This document shows positions 5,278-23,521 of a stretch of DNA of 32,000 bases, piece by piece. The notes under the pieces are model-generated. The model searched no databases, had not been told where the DNA came from, and saw only the letters and a program-made list of their open reading frames with translations. Numbering within the stretch: the stretch's first letter is position 1; every line of letters starts with the position of its first letter. The stretch covers positions 120,001 through 152,000 of the forward strand of contig CP061211.1 of NCBI GenBank assembly GCA_026016245.1, read 5' to 3'. This DNA is from Candidatus Pacearchaeota archaeon (GTDB lineage Archaea; Nanobdellota; Nanobdellia; Pacearchaeales; UBA284). The translations under genes and the position numbers were made by a program.

Positions 5278-5484
5278 TTATCCTCGAGTCATAGCGCTTC
5301 CACATTTAGGACATTTCTGCTGATAGCAAGGAATTCCTATTTGGTGAGACATTCTATAGCCACACTTTGGACAGACACATTCACCACCTGGGCCTGCTGC
5401 AAAACCACCCATGCGACCTCTACCAGTCTGGCCTCTACCTGCTCCAGCGCCTGCTCCACGACCAATTCCTCTTCCATTTGACAT
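5278..5484 (-). CDS. Gly/Arg-rich (RGG) + zinc-ribbon mini-protein
   Basis: 68 aa with a GRGxGxGxGRG tract followed by CVCPKCG-x13-C-x4-CPKCG. Paralogous to the C-terminal module of the next gene. SD AGGAGGAAATAAA-ATG. Confidence 0.6.
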   Translation of the reverse strand: MSNGRGIGRGAGAGAGRGQTGRGRMGGFAAGPGGECVCPKCGYRMSHQIGIPCYQQKCPKCGSAMTRG

Positions 5485-5518
5485 TTTATTTCCTCCTGCC
5501 TTTCGGCAATTATTTAGT

Positions 5519-6022
5519 TTAATCTCCTCTTACCATCAAGGAGCTACATTTTTTACACATCATCTGGTTGCATGGTATTCCAGGAACTTTAGTTTCTTTA
5601 TTACCACATTTAGGACAGATACAAAAGCCAGCAGGGCCAGCTCCTCTGCCAAATCCTCTGCCTCTTCCTCTTCCCATGCCTCTACCAAAACCTCTGCCAC
5701 GACCAGGGCCAACTATTGGTGATGTGACAGGGGTAATCATTTCATACCTACCTCCTTGAATTTTTATTATTTTATTATTTACAAGAGCATCAGCTACTTT
5801 TTTCCTTGCAGCTAGAATTAATCTGTGAAAAGTTGGCTGTGAAATTCCCATCTGTTCAGCTGCTTTTTCCTGTTCCATGGCTTTAAGATCTTTAAGCCTT
5901 ATGGCCTCAAATTCATCTAAAGTTAGGATAATTTCTTCTGGCAAAGTAGGCCCACCTACAGGAGCAAAGTGACTGATTCCTGGCATAAAACCAATTCTTC
6001 TTCTACGTCTTAATCTTGGCAT
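5519..6022 (-). CDS. DUF134/UPF0251-like HTH DNA-binding protein fused to RGG + zinc-ribbon module
   Basis: N-terminus MPRLRRRRRIGFMP....F.P and LTLDEFEAIRL.DL....QE.AAEQMGISQPTFHRLI match the DUF134 pattern (sigma-70 region-4-like HTH). The C-terminus is an RGRGFGRG tract plus CICPKCG...GIPC...CKKC. Confidence 0.75.
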   Translation of the reverse strand: MPRLRRRRRIGFMPGISHFAPVGGPTLPEEIILTLDEFEAIRLKDLKAMEQEKAAEQMGISQPTFHRLILAARKKVADALVNNKIIKIQGGRYEMITPVTSPIVGPGRGRGFGRGMGRGRGRGFGRGAGPAGFCICPKCGNKETKVPGIPCNQMMCKKCSSLMVRGD

Positions 6023-6104: not shown

Positions 6105-6545
6105 TTATTCTTCTATTTCAAGGTTTTTTAATTTTTCTTGGATCTTCTTTAGTTCAGATTCTAGGGCTTTCATTTCTTCTTGCATTTCTTTTCTGTCTTC
6201 TTTCAGTATTTCTTTTATCTCATCTTTTGCAGGTTCTTCATAGTAGTCTTCATAAGGATATTCATAGTCTCCTTCATAAGCATAAGGTGCATAACCCCAT
6301 GGATTCCAGAATCTTTGTCTTCTGAATCTGAAGCCTCTGCCCCTAAAACCTCTTCCTTGTCCTCTGCCAAAACCTCTGCCTCTGTTCATACCTCTACCAA
6401 AACCTCTGCCAAATCCTCTTCTAGCCATTCCCATGCCAAATCCTGGATTCATAAATCCTGGTACAGAATAGCCTGCACAGTAACCTAAACTTCTTCCTGT
6501 CATTGGTCCTATTCCATCTAGACCTGTTCCATCTCCTCTAGGCAT
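6105..6545 (-). CDS. DUF5320-like protein (RGG tract + C-terminal coiled coil)
   Basis: N-terminus MPRGDGTGLDGIGPMTGRSLGYCAG is the pattern I associate with DUF5320. Followed by a GFGRGFGRG tract, an acidic/aromatic stretch and a heptad-like C-terminus. SD AGGAGGAAATAAA-ATG, identical to the one upstream of 5484. Confidence 0.65.
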   Translation of the reverse strand: MPRGDGTGLDGIGPMTGRSLGYCAGYSVPGFMNPGFGMGMARRGFGRGFGRGMNRGRGFGRGQGRGFRGRGFRFRRQRFWNPWGYAPYAYEGDYEYPYEDYYEEPAKDEIKEILKEDRKEMQEEMKALESELKKIQEKLKNLEIEE

Positions 6546-10973: not shown

Positions 10974-12974
10974 CTAAATTCTTTGCACAAATCCTTTTTT
11001 TGGTTGGAAAATATCCCCACTTCTTTTTAGTCTATCTATAATTTCATCTAGTTCATGTTCTGAAATTTTCTCACTTAGTTCTGCTTTAAGATCATTTACT
11101 GGAATTAGTTTGCCGAGTCTTGATTCTAATCTTACTAGTGCTTCTCTTACAAGAACAATCCTGCCTCTCTCGCTGGCTGGTATTCCTGTGGCTATCCTAT
11201 CAATATCTATGGCTCCTGTTTCTGTATCCATCCCTACTTGAAGAAGGCAGAAGTGCATGATCTGGATTGCTCTTTTTGCATCATCTTTTGTTATTTTCTT
11301 GCTTAGCCTGGCTCTTGCACTTGCCTCACTTAATCTGATTAATGCTTCAAGTTGTCTTGCACTTATTGGAATAGGTCTGATAACATCTTCGCTAACTGCA
11401 GGAGCATTTCTTAAATCAACATAGAATTTCTTGATTTCAAATACTGCCTTTTCTGATAGCTGTGGCTTAATTTTTTGTTTAGCATAAGCAACATACTTCT
11501 TGAATAATCCTGGGTCAATAGGTGGTTTCTCACCTGCTTTTCTATGTTCTAGCAAGACGTGTGTGGCTATTGCTTCATCTCTCATTCTTTCTGGGATATC
11601 TTTCATTGTGAATATGAGGTCAAAACGATTTAATAATGTTGGAGACATTTCTATCTGCTTGGCTATTGGTTCATATGGATTAAAACGGCCGAATTTTGGG
11701 TTTGCTGCTCCAAGAACTGAAGTTTCTGCTCTCAGTGTTGCTTGGACATTTGCCTTGCTTATTGTCACTGTCTGCTGTTCCATTGCTTCATGCATGGCAC
11801 TTCTGTCTTGTTCTGCCATTTTTTCCATTTCATCAAGACATGCTATACCTTTGTTGGCAAGAACCATGGCACCTGCCTCAAGAGCCCAGCCTCTTAGATA
11901 TTCATCTCTTACAACAGTGGCAGTAATTCCTGCTTGGGTAGCTGCTTTTCCAACCACATAACGGCCTTTAGGGGCAGTACTTGAAACAAATTTTAACATC
12001 ACAGATTTTGCAACGCCAGGATCTCCTACAAGAAGGACGTGCATGTCGCCTCTTGACCAAGTTCCATCACTTCTTTGTTTTCTTACCCCTCCTAGAAGTT
12101 GTAAAGCAATTGCAAACTTGATTTGTTCATAACCAAATATACTTGGAGCAATACTAGCTGTAATTTTTTTATAGATATCTGGGTCTGATGCTAGTTCTCT
12201 GATCTGTCTTTCTTCTTCTTCATCAATCTCTAGTTCTTCGAAAGTCTCTTCTAAAGGAATAACATTGTTTGCTTCAATAGCAAGATCAAATCTTGTACTG
12301 ACAGCTCCACTTCTTAAAGGGATAGGCACTTCTTTTAACACACCCACCACCATGACTTTAGAGCCAGGTGTTGTTCTTTCTTCCATCCTTGGCTCTACAA
12401 GGTCTTCTTTAAGAAAAATATTAAGACGTCTTGGCTGCTCTCCTCCTTTCAAGCTCTCTGGACTTTCCTCAATAACTAATCTTTGGGCATCAACCATTTC
12501 CTTGCTTACTAACTTGAAATTAGTACGCCTTCCACAAGAGCATCTCATAGGTTCTTTAAAATGTTTATCTATCTGTAGGACACTTATTACTGTCCCACAA
12601 CTTGGGCATTCAAATTTAGCATTAACAATCTGAGGCCTTACATCAGAGGCTTGTCTTACAATACCCTCAACAACAATTAACTGCCCAAGATGTTTGGCCC
12701 TAATTTCCCTGATTAGAAGATGCTGTGATTTTGGTAGGTCACTAAGTCTGACCTTAGCTTTAGTTATCAAACCTATTTCTTCAAGAGCCAGCTCGAGGAT
12801 AGATGAAACTTCTTCTGGTTTCAAAAGCAATTGGTCAGCTAGAATATGGCTAAAACTGGCTATATCCTGAAATGATACTTGGATTGTTTTCTTACCTTTT
12901 TTAGCATACTTACCTATTTCTTGCTTGTAAAGTTCGAAAAATTCTTTTGCCTCTATAATTAAATCTTCAGGCAT
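10974..12974 (-). CDS. mcm: MCM replicative helicase
   Basis: Zinc finger CPSCG..(x21)..CSCG, Walker A GDPGVAKS, Walker B IACLDEMEKM, arginine finger SRFDLIF, C-terminal wH. 666 aa. Confidence 0.97.
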   Translation of the reverse strand: MPEDLIIEAKEFFELYKQEIGKYAKKGKKTIQVSFQDIASFSHILADQLLLKPEEVSSILELALEEIGLITKAKVRLSDLPKSQHLLIREIRAKHLGQLIVVEGIVRQASDVRPQIVNAKFECPSCGTVISVLQIDKHFKEPMRCSCGRRTNFKLVSKEMVDAQRLVIEESPESLKGGEQPRRLNIFLKEDLVEPRMEERTTPGSKVMVVGVLKEVPIPLRSGAVSTRFDLAIEANNVIPLEETFEELEIDEEEERQIRELASDPDIYKKITASIAPSIFGYEQIKFAIALQLLGGVRKQRSDGTWSRGDMHVLLVGDPGVAKSVMLKFVSSTAPKGRYVVGKAATQAGITATVVRDEYLRGWALEAGAMVLANKGIACLDEMEKMAEQDRSAMHEAMEQQTVTISKANVQATLRAETSVLGAANPKFGRFNPYEPIAKQIEMSPTLLNRFDLIFTMKDIPERMRDEAIATHVLLEHRKAGEKPPIDPGLFKKYVAYAKQKIKPQLSEKAVFEIKKFYVDLRNAPAVSEDVIRPIPISARQLEALIRLSEASARARLSKKITKDDAKRAIQIMHFCLLQVGMDTETGAIDIDRIATGIPASERGRIVLVREALVRLESRLGKLIPVNDLKAELSEKISEHELDEIIDRLKRSGDIFQPKKGFVQRI

Positions 12975-17885: not shown

Positions 17886-17928
17886 AAAATTGTTACTATT
17901 TTATAGTTTATAAATGTTGTTATAATAA

Positions 17929-17955
17929 GGTTCTGTAAAGTTATCGGTTGGTAGA
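17929..17955 (+). repeat. left terminal inverted repeat (IS6-type GGTTCTGT terminus)
   Basis: GGTTCTGTAAAGTTATCGGTTGGTAGA matches the reverse complement of 23374-23400 at 23/27 positions. Confidence 0.65.
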
Positions 17956-17988
17956 AAAGGTTAAAAGGTTAAACTTTCTTTAATTCTT

Positions 17989-18177
17989 ATGGCTACATTA
18001 AGCACAAGGAAATTAAATATAGCAAGACATAGGCAGGGTTGGTTTGCACACCAAGAAAGTGAAGAGAGAAAAAGAAGGTTAGAGGAACAGAAAAATAGAA
18101 AACCAGTAAGCAAAGAAGAACATAAAAGAAGGGTAGAAATGCTAAAGAAAATTGGGTTGTTAAAAGAAAATGAGTAA
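17989..18177 (+). CDS. small basic hypothetical protein
   Basis: 62 aa, rich in R/K/E. 8-nt overlap with the next ORF. BRE/TATA-like aaaaggttaaaagg ~29 nt upstream. Confidence 0.35.
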   Translation: MATLSTRKLNIARHRQGWFAHQESEERKRRLEEQKNRKPVSKEEHKRRVEMLKKIGLLKENE

Positions 18178-18805
18178 AGCCAAAGCGAAATTAAAGGGTA
18201 ATACTATAATTTTACAATTACATTATTCTCAAGGTGGAACAAGAATTGCAGATAAAGAGGGAAATCATCTTCCAAAGCCAACACAGGTAATAAATGATAA
18301 AAGATATTACATTGAATGGATGATAACTAATGATGAGATTAAGTTACTATCAAAACTTTTTAAGAAGGAAGAGGACATTACTGGTTTGATAAATTTATTA
18401 CAAAAAATAAGTAAATTTGCAGAAGAAACAAAATACTCTAAGAGAACAACATCTTTTGAGAAAAAAGAAATAGATAAATTTGAAGGTTTTAAGATATATC
18501 ATTATACTGATGATTTTAATTCTTTTGAAAAGATTCTTGATTCTGATTTAAGAGTAAGATTAACCTTTAAATTAGGAGATTTTGGTGTTACGGCTCATCC
18601 TCATATGTATGTTTTAATTCCTTTTAATTTCAAATCATTAAAGATAAAAAACATAGAAGGCAAAGTTAATGAAAATAAGCCATTAGGAAAAGGTTGTTTT
18701 GGGGAATTAAATTTAAATGAAGAAGAACTCAAAGAAATAATCTTAACTCTTGCTCACGCTTCAAATAATCACAGAAATGCTTTAATTGAAATTCTTAAAT
18801 CTTAA
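18170..18805 (+). CDS. hypothetical protein (possible partner of the adjacent methyltransferase)
   Basis: 211-aa ORF, convergent with the MTase gene and overlapping it by 11 nt. No nuclease motif confidently seen. Confidence 0.4.
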   Translation: MSKAKAKLKGNTIILQLHYSQGGTRIADKEGNHLPKPTQVINDKRYYIEWMITNDEIKLLSKLFKKEEDITGLINLLQKISKFAEETKYSKRTTSFEKKEIDKFEGFKIYHYTDDFNSFEKILDSDLRVRLTFKLGDFGVTAHPHMYVLIPFNFKSLKIKNIEGKVNENKPLGKGCFGELNLNEEELKEIILTLAHASNNHRNALIEILKS

Positions 18806-19943
18806 TTTTAAAATCTAAAATATCAGATTTTTTTATTGATTTACTGCCAACTCTAATTGTAGAATTTTTAAAATGCTCTTGATTTTCATTTATCAATTTA
18901 CATATTCTTTCCTTTAACTTTTTGTCTTTGTTACATTCTTCTTTAAATTCAAAGACAAAAAACATATCATTCAAAATATCTTCTTCTTTATTGATTAATC
19001 CTGTTTTCCCTACACTTACATTCCCAACTCTCACAACAGCAAGGTAATAATCAGAAACATTTTTGTCTTGTGGTATCTCTTGTCTTTCTAATATATTCGC
19101 CCCAGAAACATTATTGTTTTCATAACTCCTGTTATATTTCACTCTCCTCTCAGATAAGAATTTTGAAAGGGGTATGCCTTCTTGTTTGTTGTTTTTCTTG
19201 TATAAAAAAGATTGAGGTATTAATTCTTCTGTTGATAGTTCTTGTTTGTTTAATATCTCTTTTACACTTTTATCATCTTCGTATAATAATATTATTTTAT
19301 CTTTGTATTCTAGAATGTTTGTGAAAATAGCAAAACAGCAGGGGATTGGTTCATCAAACCAATTTTTATCATTTTGATAAATAATAATTGTAGAAAAATT
19401 ATTTATAATTTCTTTCTTAATTTCTTTGTTCTTTTTTGCTATAAAAAAAGAAATAGGTAAAACGAAAGCGATAGAAGAATTTTTGTCCTTAAAATGTTTT
19501 ATAGATTTAAGAATAAATACATTTTCCATTTGAATTTTTGGTTTTTTAATAAGAACATTTGTTAAATACTCTTCTGGCTTAATCTCCTTATTTTTATAAT
19601 TATCTGAATAATAATAACTATTTTTAACATTATATTTAGTAAAGGGTGGATTTCCAATAATTAAATCAAATTTTTCTTTTAGAGGAAAAAGAAAGAAATC
19701 ACAAGGGTTATTAGTTAAATCTGTGTCTATTTCACAATCCACTATATTTTTAAAATCCCTATCTTTAAGCCCTCTTACAAAATTTTTAGTGCCTGAAGAT
19801 GGCTCTAAAATTCTTATATTTTTATCATACTTTTTATATTCTAATAACAAATTTAAGACTCTCTTTACAATATTCCTTCTTGTGAAATATTGCCCCCAAA
19901 CAAATTTCTTCTCTTTTTCCATATTGGGATTACGCTTTGCCAT
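18795..19943 (-). CDS. N6-adenine DNA methyltransferase (gamma-class, TaqI/Eco57I-like)
   Basis: Order of motifs: GQYFTRRNIV (X-like), ILEPSSGTKNF (motif I), IIGNPPFTKY (motif IV NPPF), followed by a ~250-aa putative target-recognition region. Confidence 0.85.
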   Translation of the reverse strand: MAKRNPNMEKEKKFVWGQYFTRRNIVKRVLNLLLEYKKYDKNIRILEPSSGTKNFVRGLKDRDFKNIVDCEIDTDLTNNPCDFFLFPLKEKFDLIIGNPPFTKYNVKNSYYYSDNYKNKEIKPEEYLTNVLIKKPKIQMENVFILKSIKHFKDKNSSIAFVLPISFFIAKKNKEIKKEIINNFSTIIIYQNDKNWFDEPIPCCFAIFTNILEYKDKIILLYEDDKSVKEILNKQELSTEELIPQSFLYKKNNKQEGIPLSKFLSERRVKYNRSYENNNVSGANILERQEIPQDKNVSDYYLAVVRVGNVSVGKTGLINKEEDILNDMFFVFEFKEECNKDKKLKERICKLINENQEHFKNSTIRVGSKSIKKSDILDFKIKI

Positions 19944-19946
19944 TTT

Positions 19947-20849
19947 TTAATTCTTTTGACTTGCACAATATATCAAATCAAGCCATTTATTTTTACCAAG
20001 ATTTAGATTAACCCCAGCTTCTTCAATAGGGGTTTTATTAATGCCCTGATGAACACGAATAAAATTATAATAAACCACAAATAAAGATAATATTGCTTCT
20101 GCACTTTTCTTATCCTTAAAATTTCTCATAACTTTTATTCTTTGCCTAATTGTTCCTTGTATTCTCTCAACAATATTATTTCGTTTATCCTTATCTGCTT
20201 TTAATTTAATCCAAATTTTTTTGTCCTCTTTTCTATTTCTTGAACCCCAAACTTTCCTAAATGCTTTATTATATGAAGGTAGAGAATCTGTAAATAGATT
20301 AATAGGCTTGTTTTCTGTTTTTAAGAAAAGTATTTTTGCAGATTGATAATCTCTTTTTTCTGAATAATGAGAAGAAACCAAAACTCTTGTTCCTTTATCA
20401 ATCATATCCCAAAAATAATGCTGTTCTTTTTTACATTTAACAAAAATCTCGTCAGCATGATATTGTCCTGAAAGTTTTAAATCAAACTTTCTCTGAAAGT
20501 CTTTTAACAAGATAGCATATCTTCTTATCCAATTTAGAACAGATTGATGACTTACCCCATAATCTGAAAATTGATTAAAATGTTCTTTGATTTTTCTTAA
20601 ACTTAATCCATTCATATAAAGAGAAATACATTGAGTTACAACTTCTTTTTTATGTTTCATCTTGAAAAATCCATCATCAAGAGTAAATGTTTCAGAACAA
20701 GATTTACATTTCCATCTCTGTTTTTTTGTTGTATGATTAAATCTAAATCCCCATTTAATTAAAGTTTTAGATTTACAGAAGGGACATGCCTTCGGCTTTA
20801 TAACCGATACATTTTTATATTTCTTTGATTTATTGTTTTTGTATTTCAT
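19947..20849 (-). CDS. IS6-family-like DDE transposase with N-terminal zinc ribbon
   Basis: CPFCKS..(x19)..CKSCSETF zinc ribbon. HADEIFVKCKK..YFWDMID (cf. IS6 DETYIKIKG..YLYRAID), TDSLPSYNKAF, NNIVERIQGTIRQRIK (cf. IS6 NNxIExxHxxIKxR). ATG at 20849 is preferred over the GTG at 20864. Confidence 0.85.
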   Translation of the reverse strand: MKYKNNKSKKYKNVSVIKPKACPFCKSKTLIKWGFRFNHTTKKQRWKCKSCSETFTLDDGFFKMKHKKEVVTQCISLYMNGLSLRKIKEHFNQFSDYGVSHQSVLNWIRRYAILLKDFQRKFDLKLSGQYHADEIFVKCKKEQHYFWDMIDKGTRVLVSSHYSEKRDYQSAKILFLKTENKPINLFTDSLPSYNKAFRKVWGSRNRKEDKKIWIKLKADKDKRNNIVERIQGTIRQRIKVMRNFKDKKSAEAILSLFVVYYNFIRVHQGINKTPIEEAGVNLNLGKNKWLDLIYCASQKN

Positions 20850-20862
20850 TAGCGTGGGATAC

Positions 20863-20880
20863 ACAGCCCTTCGGGGCTGT
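20863..20880. other. GC-rich perfect hairpin ACAGCCC-UUCG-GGGCUGU
   Basis: 7-bp stem with a 4-nt loop, followed on the + strand by TTTTTATTT. Lies 13 nt upstream of the transposase ATG on the - strand. Confidence 0.7.
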
Positions 20881-20931
20881 TTTTATTTAATTATCTATTA
20901 TTAGTTATTAACTAATTATATTAGGATATAC

Positions 20932-21162
20932 CTATTTATAAATCTTTCGGTTCAAACTGGCTAAAGAAAAAATCGTCAGAAATAGGTGTCTTTTTAGAAT
21001 TAAATCTGATTCTTGCTTTAACCTTCTATCTAAAAATCTATTAAGTTTTTGAGAATAATCTTTAATATTTATGCCATGCTTTTTGTCAAATTCTTCTTTT
21101 AATAAAATTGCCTTTTCTCTTGTTTCCATAACTTTTAAATCGTGCTGATTCCAAAGATTCAT
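20932..21162 (-). CDS. hypothetical 76-aa protein, downstream partner of the AbrB-type gene (candidate toxin/effector)
   Basis: ATG overlaps the TGA of the upstream AbrB-like ORF (ATGA). GGAG ~10 nt upstream. No toxin family recognised. Confidence 0.4.
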   Translation of the reverse strand: MNLWNQHDLKVMETREKAILLKEEFDKKHGINIKDYSQKLNRFLDRRLKQESDLILKRHLFLTIFSLASLNRKIYK

Positions 21163-21338
21163 TTTTTCCTTTTCTCCTTTTTATTTTGTTGCCCAATTTT
21201 TTCTATAAACAGAATTTCTTCACCCTTGCTTTTTCCAACATAAACCTTATCTCCATTTTCCCACCCAGTCGCTTCTATTACGTCTTTAGGAATGGTTATT
21301 GTTGCTTGTCCATTTTTGTTTATAGTTAATCTTCCCAT
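21159..21338 (-). CDS. AbrB/MazE/SpoVT-type DNA-binding protein (59 aa; below the ORF-track cutoff)
   Basis: My translation: MGRLTINKNGQATITIPKDVIEATGWENGDKVYVGKSKGEEILFIEKIGQQNKKEKRKK. The ..ATITIPKDVIEATGWENGDKV.V.. segment is the classic swapped-hairpin AbrB pattern. Confidence 0.7.
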   Translation of the reverse strand: MGRLTINKNGQATITIPKDVIEATGWENGDKVYVGKSKGEEILFIEKIGQQNKKEKRKK

Positions 21339-21367
21339 AACGTTATATTAACGTTAAATTAACGTTA
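21338..21367. promoter_or_regulatory. three phased TAACGTTA palindromes (candidate operator array)
   Basis: TAACGTTA at 21338-45, 21349-56 and 21360-67, with exact 11-bp spacing. The first abuts the AbrB-like start codon. The third overlaps a TATA-like TTTATAA on the - strand. Confidence 0.55.
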
Positions 21368-21400
21368 TAAACCTTTCTATTCTCAAATTTTTCCAAAAGG

Positions 21401-21408
21401 TTTAAATA
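21401..21408 (+). promoter_or_regulatory. TATA box candidate for the wHTH gene (leaderless spacing)
   Basis: aaaggTTTAAATAgc centred ~27 nt upstream of the ATG at 21431. Confidence 0.4.
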
Positions 21409-21430
21409 GCCATTTGCTAATTATATTAGT

Positions 21431-21709
21431 ATGGCTAAAGCAATTCCAAAATGGGTGATGGAAAGGTTATCACGACTTTGGAAAAAGTATGGCGATAGTC
21501 AAGCAATAACTTTCAAACAAATAAAGGATGTTTTAAAGATGGATGACGAAAACACAATAAGGGTATTCATAAATGAATTGAAAAAAGCAGATTGGATAGA
21601 AGTTCAATTAAGCCCAGAAAGTTCAAGAGAAAGAATCTATATTCTGAAAGAACCAAATAAAATTATGATGGAGATTGTTTCAAATGGAAATAAAAGAAGT
21701 AAAGGTTGA
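21431..21709 (+). CDS. small winged-helix DNA-binding protein (putative)
   Basis: 92 aa. ITFKQIKDVLKMDDENTIRVFINELKKADWIEVQ...RERIYIL resembles a wHTH (helix-turn-helix plus wing). Confidence 0.45.
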   Translation: MAKAIPKWVMERLSRLWKKYGDSQAITFKQIKDVLKMDDENTIRVFINELKKADWIEVQLSPESSRERIYILKEPNKIMMEIVSNGNKRSKG

Positions 21710-22796
21710 ACTTGTTGATAAAAATTCAAGATTTGTCCTTAAAAAGATAATAACTAATAAAGGGGAATTTTATAATAGGCAACTTGCAGTATCAAATTCT
21801 ATTTATGCTTGTGAGAAAAAAAGATTAATTTATGGAAAAGCTTTATTTGATTCTATTTTTCAAACTTTTCATATAATGTGGAATAGTGATGAAGAAGAAT
21901 GGGATTTTATAGGATTAAAAAAAGCAAAAGAACACTCAAAAAATAATGGAAGAATTTTTATCCCATACAAACAAAGAAATGAAAAGCAGTGGAATGAATT
22001 AACTTGGAAAGAAGCCGAAGAAGAATTTAAGAAATTTCAGAAAAAAGTAAATATTGTTCCTTATCCAATTCCTTTAAATGCTTCTTTAGAAGAATGGAGA
22101 ATAAAGAAAAAGGAAGCATTAGGATTATTAGAACCAAATCAAAAACTAATTTCTATACTTTCATCTAAACATCATAATATTAATAATTTCCTTTTATTAG
22201 TAAAAGAAGAATTAAAAAATTCATTTTTTCTTGGAATTTGTTGTTATGGATTAAGCACAACTTTAGAGAAAATAAATTTATCTTTACTTAATTCAATAAA
22301 TTCCTCTTTTAATGTAGAAGATAAAACTGCTTTAATAGGTTATTTTGATTATGCGAGGATGTTAATGAACCATTCAAATATCGCTGGTTCTTTCGCTTAT
22401 TCTTGTTTTGCTGGAGATTTCTTTTCAGAAAAATCTTATTTTATTCCGAGAATGTCTAAAAAAGCAAGAGAAAAAATGTTTAATAAAAAACCAGAGGATT
22501 TTTATTTTTATGATATAAAAGAAAAAAAATTCAATAAATCCCTTCCACAATCAGGATGGTATGGTTTTGATTTAACAAGAAATTCTCTAAAAATGATTTC
22601 TGTAAATGAAGGTTTAACTGGCTATCAAACAATAAAATGGATTAATCATTTTTTACAGCAGAGAGATTTAAAATTAATTAATGAACTTCTTATTTCTAAA
22701 AAGAATGTTCTTAAATCATTAAAAAATTATACTGGTTGGAATGTTTTTTGGGATACAATAAAACCAAACTCCCCTGAAATTCAAAGAACTTTATAG
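21675..22796 (+). CDS. hypothetical 373-aa protein
   Basis: Long ORF overlapping the end of the wHTH gene (alternative start at 21684). No catalytic motif recognised. Confidence 0.5.
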   Translation: MFQMEIKEVKVELVDKNSRFVLKKIITNKGEFYNRQLAVSNSIYACEKKRLIYGKALFDSIFQTFHIMWNSDEEEWDFIGLKKAKEHSKNNGRIFIPYKQRNEKQWNELTWKEAEEEFKKFQKKVNIVPYPIPLNASLEEWRIKKKEALGLLEPNQKLISILSSKHHNINNFLLLVKEELKNSFFLGICCYGLSTTLEKINLSLLNSINSSFNVEDKTALIGYFDYARMLMNHSNIAGSFAYSCFAGDFFSEKSYFIPRMSKKAREKMFNKKPEDFYFYDIKEKKFNKSLPQSGWYGFDLTRNSLKMISVNEGLTGYQTIKWINHFLQQRDLKLINELLISKKNVLKSLKNYTGWNVFWDTIKPNSPEIQRTL

Positions 22797-22820
22797 TCAC
22801 GTGACGCAAAGGATAAAACA

Positions 22821-22862
22821 TTAAGGGGTTGCTTGTTCTTTCCAAGCAAGTTAATCCCTTAA
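22821..22862. terminator. two-segment hairpin between convergent genes
   Basis: TTAAGGG(22821-27)/CCCTTAA(22856-62) and TTGCTTG(22829-35)/CAAGCAA(22843-49), with loop ttctttc. Confidence 0.4.
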
Positions 22863-22970
22863 CGCCTTCTTTAAATTATTAATTCTTTCTACCTTTTAAT
22901 CTTTTCTATGATTTTGGCTTTGTATATAAAGTCTGAATAAGGGCTTACTTTTTAAACAAAATTTATTTTA

Positions 22971-23315
22971 TTATTTCAAGGTTAACATTTGTGCCATTAT
23001 GACAAAATTAACTTTAAAAGATAATTCTGGAAAATCTTCTTTGATTTTATTCCATATCCACATTTCTTCTTCAAAATAAGGTATAAAATTTCCTTTATCT
23101 TTCTCTTTAAATGATTCTACTTGGTCTATTCCAAAAATTTTGTGATAAGCTTCATGTATTACAATAACTTCAATTGATTCTAAAGGATTATCCCTTCCAA
23201 CCCATATTTCTTCTGGTTGAAGTGAAGCCCCTTCACCATCAACAATTTTTACAGGAAATTCAAAATTGTATTTCTCTTTAAGTTTTTTCTTAGCAGATTC
23301 TATTTCTTTTTTCAT
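22971..23315 (-). CDS. small HExxH protein (putative minimal Zn-metallopeptidase-like)
   Basis: 114 aa with VIVIHEAYHKIFG. No other motif recognised. Confidence 0.4.
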   Translation of the reverse strand: MKKEIESAKKKLKEKYNFEFPVKIVDGEGASLQPEEIWVGRDNPLESIEVIVIHEAYHKIFGIDQVESFKEKDKGNFIPYFEEEMWIWNKIKEDFPELSFKVNFVIMAQMLTLK

Positions 23316-23373
23316 AACAAATAAAATATTCTCTCTACATATAAATTTTTTGATTTAAATTATATAATTAAAA

Positions 23374-23400
23374 TCCACCAACCTAAGACTTTACAGAACC
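23374..23400 (-). repeat. right terminal inverted repeat (IS6-type GGTTCTGT terminus)
   Basis: The reverse complement reads GGTTCTGTAAAGTCTTAGGTTGGTGGA. Ends 10 nt from the tRNA-Gly 3' end. Confidence 0.65.
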
Positions 23401-23410
23401 AATAAAAACA

Positions 23411-23521
23411 TGCGCCAGCTGGGATTTGAACCCAGGTAACAACCTATCTCCAAAGTTTAGGGTTGATAAGGGATATGCCCTTATTTGGGAGGGTTGTGTC
23501 TTACCACTGGACTACTGGCGC
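23411..23521 (-). tRNA. tRNA-Gly(CCC) with 40-nt intron at the canonical 37/38 position
   Basis: Manual fold: acceptor GCGCCAG/CUGGCGC, discriminator A, D arm GUCC-AGUGGUA-AGAC, anticodon stem CAACC/GGUUG, loop CU-CCC-A[intron]A, T arm CUGGG-UUCAAAU-CCCAG. The intron contains UUUGGAG, complementary to the anticodon region (BHB-like). No encoded CCA. Confidence 0.8.

Follow-up and report, generated by a model that had tools for sequence, protein, structure and literature searches.

A probable family of IS6-like unit transposons carrying restriction-modification modules in DPANN archaea

IS6 elements are known as one-gene insertion sequences (ISs) that mobilise other genes only as pairs, and the ISCpe7-type elements of IS6 clades VII and VIII (PMC6807381) are the described group to which the locus presented here is most readily compared. 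We analyzed positions 17929-23400 (5472 bp) of a 32,000-nt stretch of a Candidatus Pacearchaeota genome, the whole of which is referred to as the window. Like the ISCpe7-type elements, the unit at this position has a single transposase gene whose product contains an N-terminal zinc-binding domain, then a helix-turn-helix (HTH), and a DDE_Tnp_IS240 domain, and its terminal repeats start with GG, have a G at position 7 (GGTTCTG) and continue with an AAAG motif. Unlike them, it encodes a transposase of only ~29% identity, it resides in a DPANN host, and the target duplication in its close clade is 9 bp rather than 8 bp. IS6 elements are moreover 0.8-1.7 kb in size with one gene, as compared to 3.4-5.5 kb and 4-10 genes for the units described here. 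Based on the comparisons below, we conclude that the stretch very probably belongs, as one copy, to a family of modular unit transposons in DPANN archaea, in which an IS6-like enzyme moves multi-gene units of 3-5 kb.

The sole member of the IS6 family recorded with a passenger gene is ISDsp3 from Dehalococcoides (Varani et al. 2021, PMC7986276). ISDsp3, and transporter ISs (tISs) in general, resemble the present unit in that one transposase gene and genes unrelated to transposition are enclosed by a single pair of repeats. However, ISDsp3 is 1456 bp long, carries one hypothetical passenger and is known from a single copy, whereas the units considered here carry up to nine passengers in exchangeable modules and are found in many independent insertions with target duplications. 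In the pseudo-compound transposons and translocatable units of IS26 and IS257, adjacent genes are also moved by an IS6-type enzyme and duplications are often lost by deletions or recombination, but these require two directly repeated IS copies, or an IS with flanking DNA, rather than one transposase within inverted ends that bound the cargo. IS1 shares the GGnnnTG tip and an InsA-type N-terminal zinc ribbon, and its target duplication is 8-9 bp. Unlike IS1, the catalytic domain scores higher for IS6 (118 bits) than for IS1 (64 bits), and the enzyme is encoded by one open reading frame (ORF) instead of the frameshifted insA/insB.

Two other groups are comparable in cargo rather than in transposase. 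Transposon-like restriction-modification (R-M) units with inverted repeats and 8-bp duplications have been described in Xanthomonas and Neisseria (Furuta, Abe and Kobayashi 2010, PMC2853133). They likewise hold R-M genes inside inverted repeats with short duplications and support the idea that R-M systems behave as selfish mobile units, but they encode no transposase and are presumed to be non-autonomous, whereas the present elements are archaeal, carry their own transposase and have R-M pairs swapped in a fixed slot. In Tn3-family transposons whose transposition module contains toxin-antitoxin genes (PMC7157771), an addiction-type module also lies beside the transposase gene and is probably co-regulated with it. 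These transposons differ in transposase family, whereas a resolvase and a res site are absent here and R-M is the main module. A 2019 survey did not detect passenger-carrying transposons in archaea (PMC6563490), a 2026 census of archaeal ISs does not mention passengers (PMC13343696), and we found no earlier description of this element family in the open-access literature. With complete R-M systems as the preferred cargo in a fixed, exchangeable slot, the elements are candidates for autonomous R-M transposons that can be tested.

The initial annotation had proposed that two distant repeats are the true ends of a cargo-carrying unit moved by a single IS6-like transposase, and this is supported by related units of 3.4-5.0 kb with perfect duplications. 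One genome scan and one metagenome scan with the transposase yielded 44 related loci (numbered with the prefix L), and ends of the window type recurred around homologous transposases (71-94% identical) in independent metagenome and genome contigs. The units measured 5016 bp in L001 (7885-12900; the same insertion as L009), 3966 bp in L006 (4889-8854), 4248 bp in L007 (69-4316), 3833 bp in L008 (56-3888), 4064 bp in L012 (112-4175), 4821 bp in L018 (7867-12687) and 3383 bp in L057 (7629-11011). A further unit of 3858 bp, in L052 (7516-11373), has a different end subtype and a transposase that is 38% identical. Perfect 9-bp direct repeats were observed just outside the inverted repeats of L001 (CTGTCCCGT), L006 (CTATACTCC), L007 (CTCTTGCAT), L008 (TATTAATAA) and L018 (AACCCATAG), and L052 is flanked by a perfect 9-bp duplication as well (CTACATTTT). 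The 2.4-kb units of L020 and L021, with transposases of 58% identity, have 8-bp duplications, and the 8-bp duplication of L057 lies inside a homopolymer and is ambiguous. Since the duplications are located in unrelated flanking sequences, the whole unit from repeat to repeat must have transposed repeatedly.

Four subtypes of inverted repeat were distinguished (GGTTGGT, GGCATA, CGGTTGATAA and CTTGTCGGGACTT), and both ends of each element match in subtype, which is expected if the ends co-evolve with their own transposase. As in a unit transposon, one repeat pair surrounds transposase and passengers, and in the relatives, though not at the window copy, it is associated with duplications at more than one site. 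The ends and the duplications are seen directly in these relatives, and we infer the chemistry. L007, L008 and L012 were also considered as circular replicons; this was rejected, as they have no terminal overlap and contain flanking DNA, with duplications in L007 and L008. The host contig of L052 carries a gene for a DUF5906 primase-like protein, along with an ORF of 1315 aa, and could be a mobile element or virus in its own right.

In the window copy, positions 17929-17955 read GGTTCTGTAAAGTTATCGGTTGGTAGA and the reverse complement of positions 23374-23400 reads GGTTCTGTAAAGTCTTAGGTTGGTGGA; the two agree at 23 of 27 positions and are identical over the outer 13, as first described. The right end (IRR; 17929-17967, plus strand), downstream of the transposase gene, comprises the 27-nt repeat and a conserved stretch, GGTTCTGTAAAGTTATCGGTTGGTAGAAAAGGTTAAAAG, that runs to 17967, and it is identical or near-identical in L001, L007, L008, L012 and L018. 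The left end (IRL; 23374-23400, minus strand), upstream of the transposase gene, shows three substitutions relative to the family consensus GGTTCTGTAAAATCTTCGGTTGGTGAAAAT. IRL and IRR of the family differ from each other at conserved positions, and this conserved asymmetry implies that most of the four mismatches in the window are not due to decay. The proposed IS6-type terminus was also recovered: GGTTCTGTAAAG is present at both ends, beginning with GG and with a G at position 7, along with cTGTt/caaa-like motifs (motif description in PMC7986276 and PMC6807381). GGTTCTG is found nowhere else in 17929-23400, so that the transposase, as stated earlier, has no nearer repeats of its own. Among repeat pairs less than 10 kb apart in the window, the element ends are the only one with an exact 13-nt seed and at least 23 of 27 matches.

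The unit is located beside a gene for tRNA-Gly(CCC) (23411-23521, minus strand), 10 nt from the repeat tip, in agreement with the initial annotation. The tRNA gene scores 54 bits in Rfam, has an intron of ~40 nt in the anticodon loop, and is intact and not duplicated. It was missed by ARAGORN in default mode, which suggests that tRNA counts from ARAGORN alone are low for this genome. The hypothesis of tRNA genes as a preferred target was rejected, with a tRNA within 1.3 kb at just 2 of 8 related loci, and because the adjacency is not common to other copies we treat the tRNA-Gly neighbour as incidental. A shared target of L008 and the window copy was likewise rejected, as their flanks agree over only ~22 AT-rich nucleotides before diverging.

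The transposase gene (19947-20849, minus strand) encodes a full-length protein of 300 aa, counted from the ATG used by nearly all homologues, with an N-terminal zinc ribbon, an HTH and an IS6/IS240-type DDE domain. The DDE motifs HADE, FTDS and NNIVER are present, with D133, D188 and E228 as candidate catalytic residues. The Pfam domain DDE_Tnp_IS240 (PF13610) was matched at 69.5 bits (cut-off 27), the best NCBIfam model was that of IS6 (NF033587), and the N-terminus matched the NCBIfam IS1/IS1595 zinc domain at 37 bits (cut-off 28). The ISC774 exception model scored 26.9, as compared to a cut-off of 200. In a tblastn search of plasmids with the transposase, all 1181 matches were annotated as IS6 family, and the nearest annotated relatives were clostridial ISCpe7-type enzymes. 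Thus, the view of the only enclosed transposase as IS6-like was upheld by Pfam, NCBIfam and plasmid annotation. A total of 146 homologues, nearly all of ~300 aa, were found in Pacearchaeota, Woesearchaeota, Nanoarchaeota and Aenigmarchaeota, and exact-protein look-ups with the 305-aa and 300-aa versions of the sequence gave no matches.

The enzyme is best called IS6-like and not a strict member of the IS6 family. The 8-bp duplication typical of IS6 is replaced by 9 bp at six independent insertions, five with the repeat type of the window and the sixth in L052, and the small, transposase-only organization of IS6 elements (about 0.7-1.7 kb) contrasts with 5472 bp and 10 ORFs in the window and 2.4-5.0 kb in the relatives. 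The clade with the ISCpe7-type enzymes has an N-terminal zinc finger (Harmer and Hall 2019, PMC6807381), and the same authors question the IS6 placement of the long clostridial and archaeal groups and note a GGnnnTG tip in common with IS1 (PMC6807381). The elements described here provide further data on this open issue. Over their first 14 residues, the L052 and window transposases are nearly identical, despite 38% identity overall, which suggests a recombination breakpoint within the 5' end of the transposase gene.

The module boundaries of the window element were defined by blocks of DNA homology to other elements: a right-end block (17928-17966), an R-M block (18168-19915), a block of transposase and leader (~19935-20900), the left module (20932-22903) and a stretch of 470 bp unique to the window copy (22904-23373). 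In total, the repeats enclose 10 ORFs, namely the transposase and nine others, in line with the ~10 annotated at the outset. This cargo is not miscellaneous; it is made up of exchangeable modules, chiefly R-M pairs. On the right, a small basic protein, orf62 (17989-18177, plus strand), with a homologue of 37% identity in L001/L009, overlaps the start of the restriction gene. The latter, orf211 (18170-18805, plus strand), is assigned by profile and fold to the restriction DNA glycosylases of the PabI family. The convergent gene (18795-19943, minus strand; 11-nt overlap with orf211) encodes a gamma-class N6-adenine DNA methyltransferase, as indicated by matches to Pfam N6_Mtase (1.9e-10) and Eco57I (1.6e-7), to PADLOC MTase_II (3.5e-22) and, weakly, to M.TaqI. 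The adjacent pair has the gene arrangement of a type II R-M system.

The transposase stop codon lies 3 nt from the methyltransferase ATG (TAAaaaATG), as already observed at the outset. In every methyltransferase-bearing element, the ATG of the methyltransferase gene, or of an EVE-domain gene that precedes it, follows the transposase TAA by 3-5 nt. At least seven different methyltransferase/restriction pairs occupy this slot. A gamma N6-adenine methyltransferase is paired with a PabI-like enzyme in the window, L001, L014 and L018; a C5 methyltransferase and Vsr with a Bsp6I-like enzyme in L007; an EVE domain protein and an N6_N4 methyltransferase with a TaqI-like enzyme in L023 (RE_TaqI, 2e-26); an N6_N4 methyltransferase with a MwoI_N-like enzyme in L057; and N6_N4 methyltransferases with unannotated convergent ORFs in L008, L012 and L016. 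On the restriction side, the first inward ATG is located ~61-63 nt from the IRR tip in all elements, downstream of a conserved AGAAAAGGTTAAAAG. A scan for sigma-70 promoters performed no better than on shuffled sequences, the model being uninformative for an archaeon. The protein P0157 (289 aa, on a 958-bp contig) resembles the L023 TaqI-like enzyme in its N-terminal half, whereas its C-terminal half shares 61% identity with the C-terminal portion of orf373, a left-module protein; it arose either as a chimera of the assembly or through a deletion that brought the two arms of an element together.

The assignment of orf211 was examined by profile and structure searches. A profile of 31 homologues matched R.PabI chains (3waz, 6l2n, 2dvy) over the full length (E 3e-6), with the conserved C-terminal 'nhrnd' of the profile consensus aligned opposite 'thknd' of R.PabI in the hidden Markov model (HMM) alignment. 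An AlphaFold2 (AF2) model, with a predicted local distance difference test (pLDDT) score of 90.4, matched only R.PabI and R.CcoLI (E 3e-12 to 3e-5, template modelling (TM) scores 0.51-0.67), of which the best reached E 3e-12 and TM 0.63-0.67; the next match had E 0.07. Profile and predicted structure thus place orf211 in the PabI family, with a predicted half-pipe fold. In common with R.PabI, R.CcoLI and R.HpyAXII it has ~210-230 aa, the YYIEW motif, a C-terminal H-x-N-D and a paired adenine methyltransferase. It differs in its ~18% identity, in an Asn at the Tyr68 position, and in being transposon-borne in a mesophilic DPANN host. GTAC is absent from the window element (0 vs 3.8 expected), as are many other palindromes. 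According to a 2023 review, PabI enzymes are found only in Campylobacterales and a few hyperthermophiles (PMC10273834), and the range of this family of restriction glycosylases now reaches mesophilic DPANN archaea.

The left module contains orf76 (20932-21162, minus strand), a conserved small protein with homologues in L018, L006, L014, L023 and L001, and, with a 4-nt overlap, a small DNA-binding protein of AbrB/MazE fold (21159-21338, minus strand). The latter matched Pfam MazE_antitoxin at 22.8 bits, below the cut-off of 24.7, and the NCBIfam AbrB domain at 5e-6; it is either a regulator or an antitoxin-like protein. As a candidate type II toxin-antitoxin pair, the two overlapping genes offer this match just under the cut-off and, in orf76, a product that matched no family. 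Divergent from it is wHTH92 (21431-21709, plus strand), a putative winged-helix protein with weak matches to Pfam winged-HTH domains (E 0.02-0.06) that is conserved in L018, L006, L014, L023 and L001. Next, orf373 (21684-22796, plus strand; 370 aa from the ATG at 21684) has a predicted fold nearest to the tRNA-guanine transglycosylases (TGTs). Its 37 homologues, none of them annotated, are restricted to DPANN contigs, and the protein itself had no Pfam, NCBIfam or PDB profile match. For its AF2 model (pLDDT 93.5), the top 50 Foldseek matches in PDB were all TGTs (E 9e-6 to 2e-4, TM 0.42-0.53, ~10% identity), and matches to a viral structure library were weak. The zinc-site cysteines of TGTs are missing, with a single nearly invariant Cys (C43) across 30 homologues. 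We regard orf373 as a putative TGT-like barrel on the strength of the model.

The genes for the AbrB-like protein, orf76, the winged-helix protein and orf373 are common to the window, L001, L006, L018 and L023. L014 has kept the left module with orf373 missing, and in L008 and L012 a PIN-domain gene is found in place of the module. In L052, the orf373 module is 85-89% identical despite the 38%-identical transposase and the different ends, and the left module also moves between transposon lineages. Homology to other elements ends at 22903, and the remaining stretch, 22904-23373, is absent from all related elements and hence a recent addition to the window copy. It contains HExxH114 (22971-23315, minus strand), a small protein with a HEAYH motif and no homologue in the related loci. 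PADLOC, PHROGs and NCBIfam suggested no function for orf62, orf76, wHTH92, orf373 or HExxH114, and orf62, orf76 and HExxH114 matched no family in any of the searches.

A GC-rich hairpin with a 7-bp stem and a CGAA loop (20863-20880, minus strand) lies 14 nt upstream of the transposase ATG. A hairpin with the invariant CGAA loop was found 14-17 nt before this ATG in all elements (in addition to the window, L001, L006, L007, L008, L012, L013, L014, L016, L018, L023, L052 and L057). Across 12 distinct sequences, compensatory changes were observed in each of the five core pairs, with 98% of cells paired. None of 500 shuffles came up to the alignment in cells paired, in cells changed on both sides or in covariation score, and two measures based on pair counts were attained in 1-2 of 500 shuffles. 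The hairpin had no match in Rfam. As a leader, it may restrict transposase expression from read-through.

The composition of the elements is distinct from that of their surroundings. The shift reported earlier, from spot counts of 9 G+C in 19381-19440 and 27 in 11701-11760, is confirmed over the full length, with a GC content of 0.268 in the element and 0.330 in the rest of the window. Elements with long flanks have values of 0.26-0.30, as compared to 0.29-0.36 in the flanks; higher values were obtained for L007 (0.347) and L012 (0.329), whose short flanks do not permit the comparison. GATC is fully absent from the elements of the window, L001, L006, L007, L008, L012, L018 and L052 (0 vs ~93 expected summed over seven elements, and 0 vs 8.6 in L052). 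GTAC, TCGA, CTAG, GGCC, CATG and AGCT are also depleted in most elements, and far less in the host flanks, whereas the depletion of GATC and other palindromes was not seen in the 2.4-kb relatives L020 and L021. The avoidance of palindromes and the lower GC content suggest that the elements have in the past moved among hosts equipped with type II restriction.

Decay and recombination were observed among the copies. L048-L051 contain a PabI-type restriction gene 99% identical to that of the window, with its methyltransferase and no transposase (L048, 4390-6199), located within islands of other R-M systems. A fossil right end, with the tip mutated from GG to AG, is found 60 nt before the start of the restriction gene. 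L019 (8991-11589) has the same element of 2.4-2.6 kb with the flank of L020 on its left and that of L021 on its right, owing either to recombination of two copies or to a chimeric assembly across the repeat. The mixed flanks show that target duplications can be lost when copies recombine or when an assembly runs across them.

In the mechanism that we propose for the unit transposon, the 300-aa transposase would recognise the two terminal repeats of ~27-40 bp, move all that lies between them as one piece and duplicate 9 bp of target. By analogy with IS6 and IS26, the route would probably be replicative, with formation of a cointegrate, which recombination between its two long copies of the element would then resolve. 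The arrangement of the genes suggests that the methyltransferase is probably co-expressed with the transposase through the 3-5 nt junction, and that the conserved sequence adjacent to IRR is probably an inward promoter for the restriction-side genes. Different R-M pairs occupy one fixed expression slot in different copies, and the AbrB-like protein, orf76, the winged-helix protein and the TGT-fold protein form a second exchangeable module in the other arm. Modules may be exchanged when the conserved sequences of the transposase and the ends undergo homologous recombination. The R-M cargo would most likely stabilise the element by post-segregational killing and provide the host with defence. 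The hairpin in the transposase leader and the promoter-like sequence near the end may coordinate transposition with methylation and restriction.

More tentatively, the elements may constitute an undescribed autonomous family of archaeal transposons that serves as a plug-in R-M platform, with a methyltransferase slot coupled to the transposase in translation or transcription, an end promoter for the restriction gene, and exchange of whole R-M pairs and of a second module, whose TGT-fold enzyme might modify bases of nucleic acids, across lineages that differ in transposase and ends. If this is true, they would represent a principal vehicle for the spread of defence systems in DPANN archaea, and they would link IS1 and IS6 through an IS6 catalytic core, an IS1-type zinc ribbon and a 9-bp duplication.

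Several observations weigh against these interpretations. At the window copy, the flanks (...GTTTTTATT / element / TTATTATAA...) have only 5 nt in common and show no target duplication. The lack of an 8-bp duplication reported initially is thereby borne out, and one of 9 bp is missing too; with 9 bp as the size in the close clade, the earlier search for 8 bp was slightly off target. The adjoining sequences on the two sides read ...GCGCATGTTTTTATT and TTATTATAACAAC.... IS6-type elements are known to lose one duplication by adjacent deletion or when copies recombine (PMC6807381), and by analogy the window copy fits a later rearrangement by intramolecular transposition of the IS6 type, adjacent deletion or recombination between copies. 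The flanks of L012 also lack a target duplication. Look-ups with the flanking 128-aa protein and the methyltransferase retrieved only fragments of the same genome, from one sample, and neither a second copy nor an empty site. Mobility of the window copy itself is thus putative.

The inverted repeats carry limited weight in isolation. In 100 first-order Markov simulations of the whole window, an equal pair was found in 4 (0.09 per window, ~p = 0.04). The pair is thus only modestly significant by itself, suggestive and not decisive. With respect to the enzyme, IS6 was the best family in the HMM classification, but the score of 118 for NF033587 is below the NCBIfam equivalog threshold of 125, as for a divergent relative. 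Together with the 9-bp duplication, this makes strict IS6 membership, and hence an IS26-like mechanism, uncertain. The catalytic residues of R.PabI are Tyr68, His211 and Asp214. In the orf211 subfamily, the residue aligned with the site of the Y68F crystal mutation is the invariant Asn of 'mitnd', so that glycosylase activity of orf211 is putative. L006 and L052 carry other genes in the slot and no recognisable methyltransferase, indicating that R-M cargo is frequent and not obligatory. The promoter, the co-expression of transposase and methyltransferase, the role of the hairpin and the post-segregational killing are all deduced from arrangement alone.

The absence of a duplication at the window copy could also mean that this copy is a fixed, immobile remnant, that is, a domesticated defence island that has lost its mobility or never moves. 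The single copy seen in 32 kb and the three substitutions in IRL are compatible with this, and L048-L051, with an R-M pair, a fossil right end and no transposase, demonstrate that such decay occurs. However, the transposase is full length with DDE motifs and zinc ribbon present, both 13-nt repeat tips are perfect, the hairpin is intact, and IS6-type activity is known to lead to the loss of one duplication (PMC6807381), and we consider a remnant rather unlikely. It is improbable that the unit is an integrated small plasmid- or virus-like replicon with the DDE enzyme as integrase, and with the winged-helix protein and orf373 for replication or maintenance. The backbone outside the R-M genes (orf373, winged-helix and AbrB-like proteins, orf76) is indeed conserved in many copies, palindrome avoidance and lower GC content are typical of plasmids and viruses, and the contig around L052, which has very large ORFs and encodes a DUF5906 primase-like protein, is possibly mobile. 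Yet no replication, capsid or partition protein was recognised among the element proteins, orf373 resembles transglycosylases and not replication initiators, and L007, L008, L012 and L057 have transposed without the orf373 module; the short contigs, moreover, show no circular overlap and include flanking duplications.

A chance match of the inverted repeats, in an ordinary tRNA-adjacent genomic island with a solo transposase gene, is favoured by the missing duplication, by the position beside a tRNA gene as a classic integration site, and by the presence of an equally good pair in ~4% of simulated windows. It is effectively refuted, and in our view highly improbable, as the same ends surround homologous transposases in many independent contigs with exact duplications. 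In addition, the window element contains no integrase, the tRNA gene is intact and unduplicated, and the tRNA adjacency is not found in other copies. The interpretation as one copy of a family of modular unit transposons is preferred.

Both junctions of the window element were recovered in independently assembled Logan contigs (run DRR463595), including L045 and L046, as exact substrings of the window. A transposase of 64% identity, P0033, is encoded on the same 710-kb source contig. Viral contigs scanned for the right-end 25-mer contained no occurrence. Elsewhere in the window, and unrelated to the element, positions 5432-5711 and 6343-6423 contain arrays of CCTCT(G/T)CC-like units with a 12-nt period, in blocks ~650 nt apart, which on the minus strand would encode Arg/Gly-rich repeats.

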